A DNA stretch of 64,000 nucleotides, from contig CAWEQU010000005.1 of the NCBI GenBank assembly GCA_963811305.1, positions 11,314-75,313 on the forward strand, written 5' to 3'. The translations under genes and the position numbers were made by a program. Below the pieces are notes generated by a model, which had not been told where the DNA came from, did no database searches, and was given only the letters and a program-made list of their open reading frames with translations. The DNA comes from an uncultured Chloroflexia bacterium (GTDB taxonomy: Bacteria > Chloroflexota > Chloroflexia > QHBQ01 > JADMIH01). This document shows, one piece after another, positions 22,429 through 35,537 of the stretch. Position 1 is the stretch's first letter; the number at the start of each line of letters is the position of its first letter.

Positions 22429-22632
22429 CGGTTTGCGCCGGGGACCGCTCTGTCACCTGGGAAGGGGTATCTACCGTAGTCGCCAAAATTTACTCCTTGT
22501 ACATGCTAAACAGGGCGCGGCCCGCACCCTGCCCAACATTATACCTTTTTCTTTCTTTTTCTTCATGAGTAGAAGGTGGCTTGCGTGAGCGCCCCTAAAC
22601 AAGCTACCCTATGATACTTACAGAAAACTTGC

Positions 22633-23331
22633 TTAGGCCCCACCGACGTTGATGTTCTCCTTATAGCCAACTGCCTCTATAAATGTCTGGAAATCCAAGT
22701 TCCATGGTTCCACAAAACCATCAAGAACGAACGAGATGAAAAGTGCAACGGAACGTGCCTGGCAGTTGAGAGACTTCTGAGGATTGAAGGCTATGTCGGT
22801 GAAGCCATCCCGCTCACGAAGTTGGTCACGGACAGAAGTATCAAGGAGGGAGAGGGCGCGAATATAAAGCCAGTCGTAAAAGGCAGTAGCGGGTTTGGTT
22901 GGAAAGTCTTGATCACCGAAGTGGAAACACACCAAGTGGCTGGCGTTTTGTCGAATACGAGGATCGCGCTTCGCCGTTTTGGGGTCCAGCGTAGCCAATT
23001 CAATGTAAGGGCCACCCTCTATAAATACCTTGGACGATTGGAAGGCACTTTCTAGGGGAATGGGGCCCAGGGTTGGATGCTCGACTTTCAGGTTGAATGC
23101 AGAGAGCCTACGGCCCAGATCCTCAAGGGAGCGAGATGAAATCTCAAGAGGCGCTCCGGCAACAGCCAGGCGCTTGGCAGTTTCATGAAGACTGGAGATA
23201 CTCCGCTGCTGCTGCTTGAGCGCAAAACCAGGGAACCAATCGAATTCTACATCAATGGTGCTTACACGTGGAGCATTAGGGAGAGGGATGAAGATTGGGC
23301 GTTTGGCGCGAGGAGTTTTCTTAATGGGCAT
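22633..23331 (-). CDS. Putative cognate partner (antitoxin candidate) of the DarT-like gene: no macrodomain motifs, core resembles NADAR/YbiA (DUF1768), plus an unassigned ~85-aa N-terminal region
   Basis: ATG 23331 lies 13 nt after the DarT-like stop (an alternative TTG at 23373 overlaps it by 29 nt). By-eye alignment to E. coli YbiA: RLSAFNLKVEHPTLGPIPLESAFQSSKVF vs DFSNFAAWPIKVDGKTWPTSEHYFQAQKF, and LDPKTAKRDPRI vs SSPMVAARMGRD. Coding confidence is high; the functional call is tentative. Confidence 0.5.
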   Translation of the reverse strand: MPIKKTPRAKRPIFIPLPNAPRVSTIDVEFDWFPGFALKQQQRSISSLHETAKRLAVAGAPLEISSRSLEDLGRRLSAFNLKVEHPTLGPIPLESAFQSSKVFIEGGPYIELATLDPKTAKRDPRIRQNASHLVCFHFGDQDFPTKPATAFYDWLYIRALSLLDTSVRDQLRERDGFTDIAFNPQKSLNCQARSVALFISFVLDGFVEPWNLDFQTFIEAVGYKENINVGGA

Positions 23332-23344
23332 GGCAGCTTTTGCC

Positions 23345-24076
23345 TTAGCGTGCTTGGTCAGGTCTAGCACCAAATATTTTAGGATACACCTCGCACTTGA
23401 TGTGGCGTGGCCATGGAAGTGTTCTGGCTATGTTGAACGCATCTTTGGAGTTGAAGTAGATATAATCAACATACTTAAGACTAATAGGGGTTTCGGAAAC
23501 CAGCACTTCGGCTTGGGGGTCCTCAGGAAAGCACTGCCATAAGGGCTTACGAGTATCAGGATCTGGGTAAAGTGACCTGAGGTGGTCCAGTCGCTGGAAT
23601 CGCTGGCCTCTGAGATAAGGAATATGGCCTCGCAGGTCGGCACGTGCGGCATTCCCCGGAAGGAAGATGCAATCGAGTTCCCAAAGTACCGCAGCGTCGA
23701 GGGCAATTACCGCAAAAGTAAGATCATAATAAAGCCCTTTCTTATAGAGCATCTTGTAATTTGTCCATTCGATGCTGCAGCAGATGGCCCACGTTGCACC
23801 GTCGGTTCGCCATACGTCCGTGGGGACGAAGTTACTGTCGCCTAGAGCCGCTACTTGGTCACGACTGAGAATACCGTGCCTGCATATACCTGGCAAATTC
23901 TGCACTGGTGTAAAGTGATAAACAGTGGAGATTGAACGTGACCTGGCGAACTCCTCCATCGCATCTTGCTGAGCTTCTAACTTCGGGGCCTCTACAGGCT
24001 TTCGAAATTCAGCGACCACTTGCTCCAAATACTGACGGAAACGATTTATTTGTTCGTACACAAGGGTCTCCTGCAA
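23345..24076 (-). CDS. darT: DarT-like DNA ADP-ribosyltransferase (DUF4433 family) toxin candidate
   Basis: VYHFTPVQNLPGICRHGILSR (cf. DarT YH-T-NL-SI--GL), FLPGNAA (cf. F-DGNA), and EDPQAEVLVSETPISLKYVDYIYF (the QAE-LV catalytic-Glu motif). The start is uncertain: TTG 24076 or internal ATG 23959 (MEEFARSRSISTVYHFT). Confidence 0.7.
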   Translation of the reverse strand: MQETLVYEQINRFRQYLEQVVAEFRKPVEAPKLEAQQDAMEEFARSRSISTVYHFTPVQNLPGICRHGILSRDQVAALGDSNFVPTDVWRTDGATWAICCSIEWTNYKMLYKKGLYYDLTFAVIALDAAVLWELDCIFLPGNAARADLRGHIPYLRGQRFQRLDHLRSLYPDPDTRKPLWQCFPEDPQAEVLVSETPISLKYVDYIYFNSKDAFNIARTLPWPRHIKCEVYPKIFGARPDQAR

Positions 24077-24283
24077 TAGGGACTGTCAACGCACGCAAGA
24101 AGGAATATGAGAAATGAATTGTACTAAGAAAAGCAGGCTTCTCAGGAATAGAAAAGTTGAACCTGATTGATGAACAATAGCGCGTACTCGAACCACTCAT
24201 ATTTATATACCACCTCGTCGGGAAGATGGCAAGGGCAGACCTCGATGCCAACCACGAGAAGTACTCATCGAGTGGATGGGCAT

Positions 24284-26290: not shown

Positions 26291-27688
26291 TTACTGCCGC
26301 CTGCGCGATATGCTTTCCTCGGTCGTTTCTTCCGTCACGACCTCGTAAAGAACAGCTTCGGTGGCTTTGGGTCGCAATACCCGGCCCAGGCGCTGGATGA
26401 ACTCGCGCTTGGTGGCGCTGCCGCTCAGGATGATGGCGACGTTGGCATCCGGCAGGTCAACGCCCTCGTTCAGGACGCGGCCCGTCGCCAGCTTGCTGAA
26501 GCGACCTGAGCGGAAACCATCGAGGATGGCCTTGCGCTCAGCAGCAGGGGTCTTGTGTGTGACAGTCGGTAGACAAAAGCGGCTCCCTATCTTCTCCGCC
26601 AGGGCGTTGTACTCGGAGAAGACCAGCACGCGATCATCCTTATGGCGTGCCAGTAGCTCCGCTACTACCTCCATCTTGCCTGAAGCACTGAGAGCGAGCC
26701 TGCGAGCTGCCTGGTGAGCCAGGAGCGCCTCGCGGGCGGCGGGATCGTTGCCGCTCCGCCAGATGAGGAAGCGTTCGTAGTCATTGCCCGACTTCATGCT
26801 GATACGGTTCCTGCGAAGATAGGCGCGATACACCTCGGCGGCGCGGTCATATGAAGCACGCTCATCCGCCGTAAGCTCGACGCTGATACGCTCTGTGCGG
26901 TAGTCAGCTATGAACTGAGCTTCGCGTAGCTGGGCGGGCAGCCGTTCGTACACCACCGGACCTACCAGATAATCCAAATCGGAATGGCGCAAATCGCTCC
27001 GGTCGGGAGTGGCGCTCAGGCCGAGGCGAGCGGTGGCGATAGCCCCTTCCGCGATAGTGCGATACGTGTCGGCTGGGAGGTGATGCACCTCGTCAAAGAC
27101 CAGCAGGCCGAAGTGGGAGAGTATCCTGCTGTGTATGGCAGCGGAGTCGTAAGTTATCACCGTCACGGGCTTCAGATCTTTCTCACCACCGCCCCAGCTA
27201 CCTACATCCCCCTCGTCCAGGTTCGTATTCCCCAGGAGGGAAGCGCGCCACTGCCCCAGGAGGTCAAGCGTGGGCACGCAGATCAGTGTGTGCGTGTTGG
27301 AGGCAGCTATAGCCATAAGAGCGACCAGCGTCTTGCCCGCGCCCGTAGGCAGCACCACTACCCCTCGGCAGTCCGCGTCCCACCAAGCCCCTAGCGCCTC
27401 AGCCTGGTAAGGACGAGGTTGTAGCTTCACCTCTACCGGGTATGGCAGAGGTGGGCGCGCATCAAACCCCTCTTTGATAATGTAGAGGTGTGCAAGGGTA
27501 TTATGGATGGCCGGATAGTCTAGCGGGAGGACGCGCAGGCACTTGCGGCGATTGTCGTGGACTACGCGGCCTCGCCAACTGTTCGCGCCCAATTGACTAT
27601 GTAGCTCTTGAGTAGTAACACCCTCAGGGGGGAGGAGGAGCAGGTCGCTGCCTGCCAGGACGAGCGTGACCGTGGGCTTACTTTTCAC
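26291..27688 (-). CDS. XPB/ERCC3/Rad25-like superfamily-2 DNA helicase
   Basis: Walker A LPTGAGKT, motif II DEVHH, motif III LGLSATP, motif VI QRLGRVLR. The N-terminal ~90 aa resemble a damage-recognition-like domain. 465 aa. Confidence 0.85.
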   Translation of the reverse strand: MKSKPTVTLVLAGSDLLLLPPEGVTTQELHSQLGANSWRGRVVHDNRRKCLRVLPLDYPAIHNTLAHLYIIKEGFDARPPLPYPVEVKLQPRPYQAEALGAWWDADCRGVVVLPTGAGKTLVALMAIAASNTHTLICVPTLDLLGQWRASLLGNTNLDEGDVGSWGGGEKDLKPVTVITYDSAAIHSRILSHFGLLVFDEVHHLPADTYRTIAEGAIATARLGLSATPDRSDLRHSDLDYLVGPVVYERLPAQLREAQFIADYRTERISVELTADERASYDRAAEVYRAYLRRNRISMKSGNDYERFLIWRSGNDPAAREALLAHQAARRLALSASGKMEVVAELLARHKDDRVLVFSEYNALAEKIGSRFCLPTVTHKTPAAERKAILDGFRSGRFSKLATGRVLNEGVDLPDANVAIILSGSATKREFIQRLGRVLRPKATEAVLYEVVTEETTEESISRRRQ

Positions 27689-32300: not shown

Positions 32301-33148
32301 ACCTCACTGCGGTAGACATGGTATCGGCTAATGACGTATGGGCTGTCGGGAACTATTACATCGGAGGTAGTATCTCGCAAACACTCGTGGAGCGCTATAG
32401 CGGTTCGTGCTCCACCCCCACCGCCACAGCTACGCCGACGGCAACAAACATCTCCACGGCTACAGCTACCAACACAGTAACGCAGACTGCGTTGGCTACG
32501 ACCACCCCAACTGCGTGCGCTCTCACCTTCATAGACGTGCCTGCCGACAGCACCTTCTACACCTGGATCAGATGCTTAGCGTGCAGAAGTATCATCTCCG
32601 GCTACACAGATGGTACGTTCCGCCCAGGCAACGACATCACTCGTGGGCAGATAGCCAAGATGGTCTCGAATTCAGCGGGCTTTTCCGAGGACCCCGGCCC
32701 ACAGATATACGAGGATGTGCCTGTAGGTAGCCCATTCTACGACTGGATAAACAGGTTATCCATGAGAGGACACATGGGAGGCTACCTGTGTGGCCTCGTA
32801 CCGGAGGAGCCATGCATCTTCCCTGACAACCGACCGTACTTCCGACCCAACGCCAGTGCCACTCGTGGACAGCTAGCCAAGATTGTATCGAACGCGGCAG
32901 GACTGGTAGGAGACCCCATCGGCTTGTTCTACACAGACGTACCCAATGACCACCCATTCTACGTATGGATAATGCGTCTTACCAGCCTCGGAGTGATGAG
33001 CGGATACCCGTGCGGCGGCGAGAACGAGCCATGTGACGATGCGAACCGTCCATACTTCCGACCATTCGCCAACGTGACGAGAGGACAGGCATCCAAGATT
33101 GTGGCTAATACCTTCTTCCCTGGCTGCGAAACACCCACACATCGATGA
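29347..33148 (+). pseudogene. Giant surface protein (~1,267 aa): beta-propeller-type repeats + Thr/Pro linkers + 3 C-terminal SLH domains. One frameshift at ~30591 (or sequencing error)
   Basis: ORF 29347..30606 ends ..FKWNGSSLDTR*. Removing one C gives FKWNGSSW-TRDNSPTDAHLYAMSMISATNGWAVG, which continues the repeat pattern (W.VG..G.i.HW.G..W) into ORF 30422..33148. SLH units follow: FIDVPADSTFYTWI.., YEDVPVGSPFYDWI.., YTDVPNDHPFYVWI... Confidence 0.75.
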
Positions 33149-33173
33149 TACCTGGAGCGCGACAAACGATCTA

Positions 33174-33217
33174 AAAGAGAGGGGAGTCATCAGGTCTGAT
33201 TGACTCCCCTCTCTTTT
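33174..33217 (+). terminator. Rho-independent terminator candidate
   Basis: 17-bp stem aaaagagaggggagtca / tgactcccctctctttt with a 10-nt loop. The 3' arm ends in a T-run. It lies 26 nt after the stop. Confidence 0.65.
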
Positions 33218-33480
33218 AGAGATCTACCTATTGGCGTGTCTGGAAGTCCGACAAGCTTAGTTTCGGAGGCTCAGCCACGGGTATGGTGCTCACCCACACT
33301 TGGAGCACGGTATGACATACTGCATAATCACCGTATACTCTAAATATGGTAAGTAGTATAGGGGTGTTACAATATTTAGGGAAGCAGAAAGCACAAACGA
33401 CAATAACGAGTTGACGGTGTATCGCTCAACCGCGTGACAGATGAGATATCAAGCTACGAGACGCCAACTTCTAAGAAGAC

Positions 33481-35394
33481 ATGAGCTACAGAGAAGATAA
33501 GCATATATTCGTGACCCTGACCATCACCGGCCTGGCACTTGCTTTGGCAACATGGTCATGGCTTGGAGACCGGGCAGTTCCTGTTATAGCGATTGGAAGC
33601 ACACCTACACCTGTAGCCATCTGCGAGCCTATCTGGAGCGTAGTAGAGAGCCCCAACCCGGGAACCTCTAATGACCTTGCCGGGGTAGATGCCAGAGCAG
33701 CCAATGACGTTTGGGCTGTGGGGGGTTATAGCGATGGAAATCGAACCTGGACATTAGTGGAGCATTGGGATGGTTACCAATGGAGTGTAGTTTTCAGCCC
33801 CGCTCCCACCTCTTCCATCCACGTTGCCCTGTCTGGAGTAGCCGCGCTCGCACCTGATGATGTGTGGGCTGTAGGTCAGTACGATCCAGGCAGCTCAGGT
33901 AGCGGGTATCACACACTTGCGGAGCATTGGGACGGTTACCAATGGAGCATTGTGGCTACCCCTGATCTTGGTCCGGGGAGCGCGGCCCTGTTAGATATAG
34001 ATGGCGTCTCCATCGACGACGTATGGGCCGTTGGACACGATAACAACGGCAGGCTATTGGCCGAGCATTGGGACGGCGACCAGTGGAGTAGAATGCCCAC
34101 CCCCGATCCTGGCGTATATCAGGCAGTCAACGAACTCAGGAGCGTAGAGGCAATTTCCTCTAACGACGTATGGGCGGTGGGTTACTACCTCACTGCTGCC
34201 GGTGCTTGGCTACCGATAGCCCTGCATTGGGACGGTCTTCAATGGACCCAGGTGTCCGTTCCCATCTCTGGAGGCGACACCAACTTGCTTTATGGAGTAT
34301 CGGCTGTCTCTTCTACAGACGTATGGGCAGTGGGACACTTCTCCGATCCATCAACTGGCACCTACACGCTGACCCTGCATTGGGACGGTACTAAGTGGAG
34401 CATTACGCCCAGCCCCAATCTCAGTCCCAACGGAAATTTTCTCTTTAGTGTAGAGGCGGTTTCTGCTAACGATGTGTGGGCCGTGGGGCAATATACGGTG
34501 CCTAACCCGCCTGGGCCAACGCTTGTAATGCACTGGGACGGCATAGAGTGGGGTGCCGTATCCAACCCCAATCCCGGCACGATACATAATATCTTCTGGG
34601 GGGTATCGGCGGTCTCAACTCATGATGTGTGGGCGGTGGGCAATCAATGGGATGGCTCAGGCTCACCCTTCAGCACACTCATAGAGCACTACGCCGATCC
34701 ATGCGTAACTCCAACCCCATCAAGCACCCCAACTTCTACAGTTACCGCTACACCCACAATTTGTACCATCACCTTCTCTGATGTTGACGAAACTAACCCT
34801 TTCTCTACATGGATAAGGTGTCTGGCATGTAGGAACATAATTTCCGGCTACAGTGATGGTACGTTCCGTCCAGGCAATGACATAACAAGGGGGCAGATAG
34901 CCAAAATAGTCTCTAACTCTGCTGGCTTCTCTGAAGACGCAGGTCCACAGATATACGAGGATGTGCCTGTGAGCAGTCCATTCTATGACTGGATCAATCG
35001 CCTCTCAATGAGAGGACACATGGGAGGATACCTCTGTGGATTAGTGCCTGAAGAACCTTGCATCTCTCCAGACAACCGCCCATATTTCCGACCTAATGCC
35101 AGCGCTACTAGAGGACAGCTAGCCAAGATAGTCTCCAATGCAGCAGGACTGGGAGGAGACCCCACAGGTCTGTTCTACACGGACGTGCCGGAAGAGCACC
35201 CGTTCTATGTATGGATAATGCGCCTTACCCAACTGGGTGCGATGTCAGGCTACCCATGCGGAGGGGAGGGAGAACCTTGTGACGACGCTAACCGCCCTTA
35301 CTTCAGACCGTTCGCCAATGTGACTAGAGGACAGGCATCCAAGATAGTTGCTAATACTTTCTTCCCCAACTGTCAGACGCCCCAACGTCCATAG
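33481..35394 (+). CDS. Surface protein: N-terminal anchor, ~8 NDVWAVG..HWDG.QWS propeller-type repeats, 3 SLH domains
   Basis: 637 aa. TM-like segment FVTLTITGLALALATWSWL. The repeats are as in the second half of the 29347 gene. The C-terminal ~215 aa are near-identical to the other two SLH proteins. Confidence 0.8.
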   Translation: MSYREDKHIFVTLTITGLALALATWSWLGDRAVPVIAIGSTPTPVAICEPIWSVVESPNPGTSNDLAGVDARAANDVWAVGGYSDGNRTWTLVEHWDGYQWSVVFSPAPTSSIHVALSGVAALAPDDVWAVGQYDPGSSGSGYHTLAEHWDGYQWSIVATPDLGPGSAALLDIDGVSIDDVWAVGHDNNGRLLAEHWDGDQWSRMPTPDPGVYQAVNELRSVEAISSNDVWAVGYYLTAAGAWLPIALHWDGLQWTQVSVPISGGDTNLLYGVSAVSSTDVWAVGHFSDPSTGTYTLTLHWDGTKWSITPSPNLSPNGNFLFSVEAVSANDVWAVGQYTVPNPPGPTLVMHWDGIEWGAVSNPNPGTIHNIFWGVSAVSTHDVWAVGNQWDGSGSPFSTLIEHYADPCVTPTPSSTPTSTVTATPTICTITFSDVDETNPFSTWIRCLACRNIISGYSDGTFRPGNDITRGQIAKIVSNSAGFSEDAGPQIYEDVPVSSPFYDWINRLSMRGHMGGYLCGLVPEEPCISPDNRPYFRPNASATRGQLAKIVSNAAGLGGDPTGLFYTDVPEEHPFYVWIMRLTQLGAMSGYPCGGEGEPCDDANRPYFRPFANVTRGQASKIVANTFFPNCQTPQRP

Positions 35395-35410
35395 GCCGGA
35401 CGCGAGACCA

Positions 35411-35447
35411 AAATCCCTCGACCCTCACACGGTCGAGGGATTTGCTT
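35411..35447 (+). terminator. Rho-independent terminator candidate
   Basis: aaatccctcgacc / ctcacac / ggtcgagggattt followed by gctt, 17 nt after the stop. Confidence 0.65.
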
Positions 35448-35537
35448 ATGCAGGAATAGGGCAGGCAAATACAGTGGTCTATATCTTGCATTCTACGAAT
35501 GGTCACACGTGTGGGCAGCTACCAGGAGGGAAGAATC

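Follow-up and report, generated by a model that had tools for sequence, protein, structure and literature searches.

Organisation of the gene pair

A window of 64,000 nucleotides (nt), the whole stretch of contig CAWEQU010000005.1 of an uncultured Chloroflexia bacterium that was analysed here, carries two tightly linked genes on its minus strand. They lie in a small islet of low G+C content between a spermidine-synthase fusion gene and a DUF790/Bax1-like gene. Very likely, this islet is an intact two-gene DarTG1 (DarT1-NADAR) module, with a predicted DNA ADP-ribosyltransferase toxin of the DarT1 type upstream and a putative NADAR antitoxin (the partner) downstream. The open reading frames (ORFs) as delimited mechanically, and the genes with their preferred starts, are as follows.

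23345..24076, minus strand, upstream toxin ORF, mechanical call, 243 amino acids (aa) from TTG 24076
22633..23373, minus strand, downstream partner ORF, mechanical call, 246 aa from TTG 23373
23345..24061, minus strand, predicted gene for a DarT1-type DNA ADP-ribosyltransferase toxin, 238 aa from GTG 24061
22633..23331, minus strand, predicted gene for a DarT1-associated NADAR antitoxin (ADP-ribosyl-guanine hydrolase family), 232 aa from ATG 23331
24068..24072, minus strand, Shine-Dalgarno sequence AGGAG, 6 nt before the toxin GTG 24061, read from the sequence

A first-pass annotation of this DNA had described two linked minus-strand ORFs with either a 13-nt spacing or a 29-nt overlap. Both figures agree with the ORF list and with direct reading of the sequence: on the minus strand the partner ORF from its TTG overlaps the toxin ORF by 29 nt, while the partner ATG 23331 is located 13 nt past the toxin stop codon (23345-23347). 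All peptide motifs quoted at that time were found in the translations, namely VYHFTPVQNLPGI, FLPGNAA and DPQAEVLV in the toxin and LESAFQSSKVF and DPKTAKRDPRI in the partner.

The true start of the toxin is most likely GTG 24061, because AGGAG is positioned 6 nt upstream and because the public gene call P0121 (238 aa, 100% identical to the toxin) begins at this codon. For the partner, GTG 23370 and TTG 23373 are available as other upstream starts. ATG 23331 is most likely the true one, since the closest homologues have their N-termini at an aligned 'MP.KK.PRAKRP'; the start used in the public call P0001 (245 aa) is probably 13 codons too far upstream.

The partner as a DarT1-associated NADAR antitoxin

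The partner matched Pfam family PF22397, 'DarT1-associated NADAR antitoxin', with 246.7 bits (cut-off 27, E 2.2e-73), profile positions 1-211 of 212 being aligned to residues 23-234. Nothing else was matched in Pfam at E<=1, neither Macro nor the generic NADAR/DUF1768 family. No Macro or DarG match was obtained at E<=1 in Pfam, PADLOC or NCBIfam, and macrodomains were absent among the Foldseek fold matches of the partner model. The NADAR of Geobacter lovleyi (8BAT) was found by sequence with E 2.6e-49 over residues 18-234. An AlphaFold model based on 38 homologues reached a mean predicted local distance difference test score (pLDDT) of 93.7 and superposed on all 219 residues of 8BAT (E 6.5e-22, target-normalised TM-score (TMt) 0.92, root-mean-square deviation 1.8 Å), with 44% identity across the 219-column Foldseek alignment. 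The search returned 5769 partner homologues; PF22397 was present on all among the matches listed, and one homologue carries the NCBI name 'DarT1-associated NADAR antitoxin family protein'. Judged by sequence and model, the downstream gene encodes a member of this antitoxin family. The first-pass annotation had placed the partner in the NADAR lineage and outside the macrodomains, which is borne out. Its description of a 'very divergent DarT1-NADAR pair' stands as to the type of pair, but with 44% identity to the G. lovleyi protein the partner is not very divergent.

The first-pass annotation had left about 85 residues at the partner's N-terminus unplaced and took them for an extra unknown domain. 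Its alternative was that a DarT is combined here with a new reversal or neutralisation domain, the N-terminal residues being of unknown fold. What spoke for this was the failure to place the segment by eye and the fact that the generic NADAR/DUF1768 and YbiA models fall short of the partner (fold match with 2B3W at E 0.31). The segment is covered, however, by the PF22397 alignment, whose position 1 falls on partner residue 23, as well as by the 8BAT alignment and the 219-residue superposition. In the model the N-terminus consists of a strand (21-29), a second strand (36-44) and a helix (51-67) with a pLDDT of 96-98. DarT1-associated NADARs are known to possess a β1-β2-α1 N-terminal extension of the YbiA-like fold, proposed to form a basic groove that binds single-stranded DNA (ssDNA) (Schuller et al. 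2023, PMC11543638). Because the N-terminus lies within both alignments and folds as this published extension, it is that extension, and the partner carries no new domain. The novel-domain alternative was rejected on these grounds and has a negligible probability.

Mutagenesis of the NADAR of E. coli C7 has identified E88, K95, D171 and K115 as residues needed for ADP-ribosyl-guanine hydrolysis or rescue, and E173 was reported as dispensable (PMC11543638). The equivalents of the first four in the partner are E107, K114, D192 and K134 (245-aa numbering). E107, K114 and D192 are each present in 38/38 aligned homologues, and the position of K134 is a lysine in 35/38. The equivalent of E173 is an alanine in the partner, at a position that varies in the family.

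With the YbiA-type NADARs (DUF1768; E. coli YbiA 2B3W and the YarT-YbiA pair, PMC11125620) the partner shares the α-helical NADAR core and the Glu and Lys of the 'ESAFQSSK' motif. These proteins differ in that they have no DarT1-type N-terminal extension and carry Glu, not Asp, at the second catalytic position. The structural likeness to 2B3W is small, with a marginal fold match (TMt 0.46).

The toxin as a DarT1-type ADP-ribosyltransferase

The upstream ORF had been named a DarT from its motifs. A profile search upheld this, with a match to PF14487 (DarT, formerly DUF4433) of 41.4 bits (cut-off 22.5, E 1.7e-10) that aligns toxin residues 53-215 to profile positions 1-177 of 201. The PADLOC DarT model also matched the toxin (E 8e-8). 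In the PDB, E. coli C7 DarT1 (8BAQ) was the sole sequence match at E<=1 with phmmer (E 1.6e-15), and no DarT2 chains were matched in that search. The AlphaFold model of the toxin (pLDDT 92.0) had DarT structures throughout as its top eight fold matches in Foldseek. The best was again 8BAQ (E 3.6e-14, TMt 0.79, 25% identity), followed by seven DarT2 structures (7OMU-7OMY, 7YK3) with E 8e-7 to 5e-5 and TMt 0.33-0.58. Sequence and fold together place the upstream gene as a DarT ADP-ribosyltransferase of the DarT1 type, and the structural comparison sets it with DarT1 ahead of DarT2.

Residues of the toxin were mapped on C7 DarT1, the chain index of 8BAQ being the numbering of the paper plus one. 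The following equivalents were found (C7 DarT1 to toxin, 238-aa numbering).

H17 / F18 / T19 to H49 / F50 / T51
R35 to R67
D49 to D82
R52 to R85
D54 to D87
S63 to S96
M71 to M104
Y73 to Y106
K74 to K107
N104 to N137
Q150 to Q183
E152 to E185

The catalytic Glu E185 lies in DPQAEVLV (the 'QxE' strand) and aligns with C7 position 152, which is Ala in the E152A crystal construct. It was kept in 14/14 aligned relatives; D87 and N137 were also invariant, and R85 and S96 nearly so. Replacement of E152, N104, M71, R52 or D54 by Ala abolishes the toxicity of C7 DarT1 (Schuller et al. 2023, PMC11543638). The toxin keeps the equivalents of all five, most of them invariant among the 14 relatives. Where DarT2 has His to coordinate the base and Tyr at position 63, DarT1 has Asn and Ser (PMC11543638); the toxin shows both DarT1 states, as N137 and S96.

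At its N-terminus the toxin model forms one long helix, to which the following region corresponds.

23938..24061, minus strand, coding region of the toxin N-terminal helix (residues 1-41), from the model and the homologue alignment

The helix comprises residues 2-41 with a pLDDT of 85-97, and the alignment with 8BAQ begins at toxin residue 35 (238-aa numbering). This segment is conserved in the six closest toxin homologues, P0122-P0127 (49-63% identical). Searched exhaustively with HMMER, 1.84 billion cluster representatives (50% identity) yielded 1884 relatives of the toxin at E<=1e-3, 852 at E<=1e-10 and 4 at E<=1e-30. Because only four representatives reach the last threshold, the sequence comparison assigns the toxin to a small, fairly divergent DarT1 branch. 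The marks of this branch are the conserved helix of about 40 residues and a Lys at the position of Tyr75 of C7 DarT1. That the helix serves the branch as a regulatory or a partner- or DNA-binding element, or that its toxins prefer another sequence or base, would be an improbable outcome.

Additions at the N-terminus are frequent in the wider family. Among the best 150 DarT representatives many are 300-850 aa long, with a C-terminal DarT domain and nothing recognisable before it. DarT relatives of this kind have 100-650 N-terminal residues without a Pfam match (L001:4572-6791, P0256, P0264, P0265, P0267, P0330 and P0358). The 739-aa DarT of locus L001 is 52% identical to the window toxin over the domain and adjoins a NADAR gene; helicase, integrase and BrxC/BrxD-domain genes belong to the same island.

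Operon architecture in related loci

The surroundings of the partner family were surveyed for DarT genes. A DarT directly upstream of the NADAR gene was seen in L001, which holds a relative 63% identical to the partner, and in the Chloroflexia loci L003 and L004 (55%); L002, with another relative, had no directly upstream DarT. A metagenome scan with the partner alignment contributed 80 further loci, bringing the survey to 84, and DarT was sought in six-frame ORFs with an iterated DarT profile. The first DarT hidden Markov model, built on 14 sequences, detected the gene in 48/84 loci and the iterated profile in 65/84, in each of these 65 adjacent, upstream and on the same strand. Among the loci whose sequence extends 700 nt or more beyond the NADAR gene on its upstream side, DarT was directly upstream on the same strand in 57/68 (84%) at a median distance of 4 nt. 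The NADAR-adjacent DarTs fell into two score classes, with E of about 1e-45 to 1e-83 and about 1e-6 to 1e-10. The partner family was also found on 29 plasmid records from many genera. Sixteen of these plasmids are conjugative or mobilisable, and in several of the 29 an annotated DarT gene overlaps the match. From the survey, the Chloroflexia relatives and the plasmids, the order of toxin and then antitoxin in the window is, as far as gene content tells, that of the canonical DarTG1 operon.

Eleven of the 68 informative loci were without an adjacent DarT (L002, L009, L041, L059, L066, L068, L075, L076, L082, L084 and L088); L088 has a frameshifted DarT (L088:593-1046) about 600 nt upstream of its NADAR-family gene. 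Loci of this kind may hold orphan antitoxins or partners of unrecognised toxins.

Decay does occur in the family, as the frameshifted toxin of L088 and the ten loci without any DarT demonstrate, and the window pair could in principle be a non-functional remnant too. This is very unlikely for the window, where both ORFs are full-length, all catalytic residues are retained, both proteins gave high-confidence models and a canonical Shine-Dalgarno sequence precedes the toxin.

An accessory islet between core genes

The pair occupies a stretch with the following limits.

22568..24283, no strand assigned, accessory islet of 1716 bp with the putative DarT1-NADAR operon, from the L006 comparison and G+C content

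Its G+C content is 49.9%, versus 59.4% and 57.9% in the flanking 5 kb, which puts the islet in the lowest 0.8% of 1716-nt windows. The two genes have a G+C of 0.497 and 0.516, compared to a mean of 0.586 (standard deviation 0.030) for 49 window ORFs, and a G+C at third codon positions (GC3) of 0.51 and 0.53 compared to 0.66 (standard deviation 0.08). The low-GC islet of the first-pass annotation is real, but the dip is milder (49.9% against about 58.5%) than the roughly 45% counted by hand.

A 5-kb Logan contig of about 90% nucleotide identity, L006, was reached via the spermidine-synthase homologue P0135 and shows the same slot with other contents. The segments correspond as follows.

L006:1-656, equal to window 24940-24285, the 3' end of the Bax1-like gene
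L006:657-1766, unrelated 1110 bp with 56.5% G+C and an APH-family phosphotransferase gene, where the window has the 1716-bp islet
L006:1767-5064, equal to window 22567-19256

Homology between the two breaks off at the stop codon of the Bax1-like gene and returns with the conserved promoter-like stretch of the spermidine-synthase gene, 'CATGAAGAAAAAG…GGTATAATG'. The bounds 22568-24283 follow from the different cargo in the same slot of L006 and are almost exactly those proposed earlier. Since the slot in L006 carries other cargo and the composition of the islet is atypical, the DarT1-NADAR pair is acquired accessory DNA, inserted between the spermidine-synthase fusion and the DUF790/Bax1-like gene as had been suggested.

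The genes on both sides belong to conserved blocks. Downstream, the order spermidine-synthase fusion, 156-aa ORF, Cu-oxidase_4, YggS-like and CCA-adding-enzyme-like gene is kept in relatives that are 73-90% identical in DNA. The upstream operon encodes an RNase_H_2-TPR protein, an XPB-like helicase and the DUF790/Bax1-like protein; the GTDB genome 'Chloroflexia bacterium SMAG_U8985' (L005) has it conserved at 87-92% nucleotide identity. L005 was the sole GTDB locus found with the Bax1-like protein; its contig ends 87 nt past that gene, so that the slot falls beyond the contig end. A long near-perfect hairpin follows the Bax1-like gene there, at the contig end (L005:11790-11875), at the same point where the islet begins in the window.

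A functional link of the pair to the XPB-like helicase, DUF790 and RNase_H_2-TPR genes was considered and rejected. In L005 and L006 these neighbours are part of the conserved core, and they lie outside the islet; for that reason their adjacency is no evidence of a shared function. The XPB-like helicase (window 26291-27688, minus strand) matched PADLOC PbeA helicase models with E 1e-51. Because its operon is conserved as core DNA in relatives, this match is probably a generic similarity among superfamily 2 helicases.

The islet contains two genes only, and no integrase or transposase was found in it. Flanking repeats or att sites around it were limited to chance-level matches, no tRNA was present in the window, and an Rfam scan of the window gave no match. 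The junction between the Bax1-like and spermidine-synthase genes may be a cassette-exchange hot spot without recognisable mobile-element machinery.

Expression signals

Two features outside the coding regions were delimited.

24062..24283, minus strand, AT-rich leader from the DUF790 stop codon to the toxin start, 222 nt, 45.9% G+C
22594..22637, minus strand, hairpin of about 17 bp across the NADAR stop codon, without a U-tract, from the RNA fold

We infer from the sequence that a promoter lies in the leader. Its one weak sigma-70-like site (24145-24118, minus strand) agrees at 9 of 12 positions, no better than shuffled sequence, and the RNA fold of the leader was not more stable than its shuffles (z = 0.23). 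At the other end, folding of 22480-22660 (minus strand) gave z = -3.6, for a stretch that also includes the hairpin in the speE leader. The consensus scan called no intrinsic terminator at the NADAR stop; the hairpin found there is possibly the 3' end or a stabiliser of the operon transcript.

The leader of the MFS/spermidine-synthase fusion gene has a strong GC-rich hairpin, GGGCAGGGTGCGGGCCGCGCCCTGTTT, at about 22500-22535 (minus strand), with a TATAAT box on one side and an AAGGAG Shine-Dalgarno sequence on the other. This hairpin is kept in L006, altered in L007, and had no Rfam family match.

Comparison with known DarTG systems

The nearest characterised relatives are the DarTG1 systems of E. 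coli C7 and G. lovleyi (8BAQ/8BAR/8BAS, 8BAT), which like the window have the toxin first and a single-domain NADAR second. Common to both are the DarT fold with the equivalents of H17, F18, T19, R52, D54, S63, M71, N104, Q150 and E152, and the NADAR β1-β2-α1 extension with those of E88, K95, K115 and D171. The window partner is 44% identical to the G. lovleyi NADAR, versus 48-57% quoted for the family to the C7 NADAR (PMC11543638). The toxin is more distant, with 25% in the fold alignment versus 35-40% among selected DarT1s (PMC11543638). It differs further by about 35 extra N-terminal helical residues and by three substitutions, Tyr75 being replaced by Lys, Phe72 by Leu and Asn48 by Thr. The predicted pair also has another host, a Chloroflexia bacterium.

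The DarTG2 systems (DarT2-DarG of Thermus and M. tuberculosis; 7OMV-7OMY, 7YK3) share with the window pair the DarT/ADP-ribosyltransferase fold, the catalytic Glu and the logic of an ssDNA-ADP-ribosylating toxin reversed by a hydrolase antitoxin. Their antitoxin is a macrodomain protein with a catalytic Lys and a C-terminal DarT-binding domain, whereas the window partner has no Macro match. The base-coordinating residue is His in DarTG2 and Asn in the window toxin, and the predicted target is guanine here as opposed to thymine.

Proposed mechanism and its alternatives

A mechanism can be proposed from the homologous systems of E. coli C7 and Geobacter lovleyi. Experiments on this family demonstrated toxicity, rescue, ADP-ribosylation of guanine N2 and the reversal of this modification (Schuller et al. 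2023, PMC11543638). With NAD+ as donor, the 238-aa DarT1 would ADP-ribosylate guanine in ssDNA at its N2 amino group. DNA modified in this way would block replication, with a bacteriostatic or toxic outcome. The 232-aa NADAR, presumably co-transcribed with the toxin and translated from the ATG 13 nt past its stop codon, would hydrolyse ADP-ribosyl-guanine and neutralise the toxin by reversal of its product. In the host, the pair would most likely act in abortive-infection-type phage defence, as demonstrated for DarTG1 of E. coli, and/or as an addiction module that holds the islet. That the window pair itself is toxic, acts specifically on guanine, reverses the modification and serves in defence is a prediction by analogy.

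A number of observations weigh against this interpretation. The toxin is only moderately like characterised DarT1, with 25% identity in the fold alignment and 41 bits to the Pfam DarT family, and the NCBIfam DarT equivalog gave 15 bits, far under its cut-off of 150. PADLOC recognised the toxin only and not the partner. Four ligand contacts of C7 DarT1 are changed in the toxin (F72 to Leu105, Y75 to Lys108, N48 to Thr and S26 to Gly), and about 35 N-terminal residues exceed the start of C7 DarT1. The consensus scan for promoters and terminators gave no excess over shuffles and no convincing instance of either. No recognisable defence island surrounds the islet, the PADLOC hits besides the toxin being the generic helicase only, and the defence role would be extrapolated from E. 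coli. As to the NCBIfam result, which left neither toxin nor partner with a usable match, the equivalog is probably a DarT2-type model. F72 of C7 DarT1 was reported as dispensable for catalysis (PMC11543638), and the guanine-contacting K74 and the nicotinamide-stacking F18 are kept, as K107 and F50.

These differences raise the question of whether toxins of this subclade modify something other than guanine N2 in ssDNA, be it another base, another sequence context or RNA. The loss of Tyr75, which contacts guanine O6 in C7 DarT1, the change of F72 to Leu, the extra N-terminal helix and the small number of close relatives (4 cluster representatives at E<1e-30 among 1.84 billion) would fit such a shift, as would the finding that some NADARs also strip ADP-ribose from cytidine (PMC12945103). 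It is nevertheless an unlikely explanation, given that the base-coordinating Asn is invariant, the R52/D54 pair is invariant or nearly so, the K74 equivalent is conserved, position 75 varies across the aligned DarT relatives (n=14), and the partner carries the DarT1-specific catalytic Asp and Lys.

The enzymes of a DarT1-NADAR pair could also work as proposed and have a function other than defence, either as a selfish addiction module for the islet or as a regulator of growth and replication like DarTG of M. tuberculosis. The position of the islet as a lone 1.7-kb cassette among core genes, outside any defence island, speaks for such a function, and the occurrence of the family on plasmids (29 records, of which 16 are conjugative or mobilisable) fits addiction modules. 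For M. tuberculosis, a 2025 article (PMC12170906) states that ssDNA ADP-ribosylation controlled by DarT and DarG coordinates stationary-phase growth. On the other side, E. coli C7 DarTG1 had already served to characterise phage defence in work mentioned by Schuller et al. (PMC11543638), and a 2024 preprint (PMC11257639) describes antitoxin-like enzymes of T4-like phages that overcome DarTG1. The L001 relative of the partner (63% identical) moreover resides in the island with BrxC/BrxD-domain, helicase and integrase genes. A function without defence is possible but less likely than not, and defence and addiction or regulation are not mutually exclusive.

Read as a DarTG1 module, the window pair is an ordinary copy of a characterised system and matters little beyond annotation: it is a further example, from Chloroflexia, of a family for which Pfam models, crystal structures and biochemistry are available. 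The label 'DarT1 toxin / NADAR antitoxin' is safe for the locus, where the public calls in the searched collection are unnamed. Specialists may take an interest in the long N-terminal helix of the toxin, its one mildly unusual feature, set beside DarT relatives with large unannotated N-terminal regions. They may also note the slot that is filled by DarTG1 in one genome and by an unrelated APH-family kinase gene in another about 90% identical to it.

Other observations in the window

The segment at 33121-35456 had no match in the otherwise collinear L005 and looks like a second strain-specific insertion. It includes an ORF at 33481-35394 that encodes 637 aa with an SLH domain (G+C 0.54, GC3 0.53). 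The only other stretch of the window as poor in G+C as the islet is 1-2000, at about 48%. An ORF on its minus strand (403-1299, 298 aa) had no Pfam or PDB match; its product has a signal-peptide-like N-terminus and an internal repeat, and its last 30 residues weakly match a nuclease model of the SNase type, as might be seen in a truncated gene.

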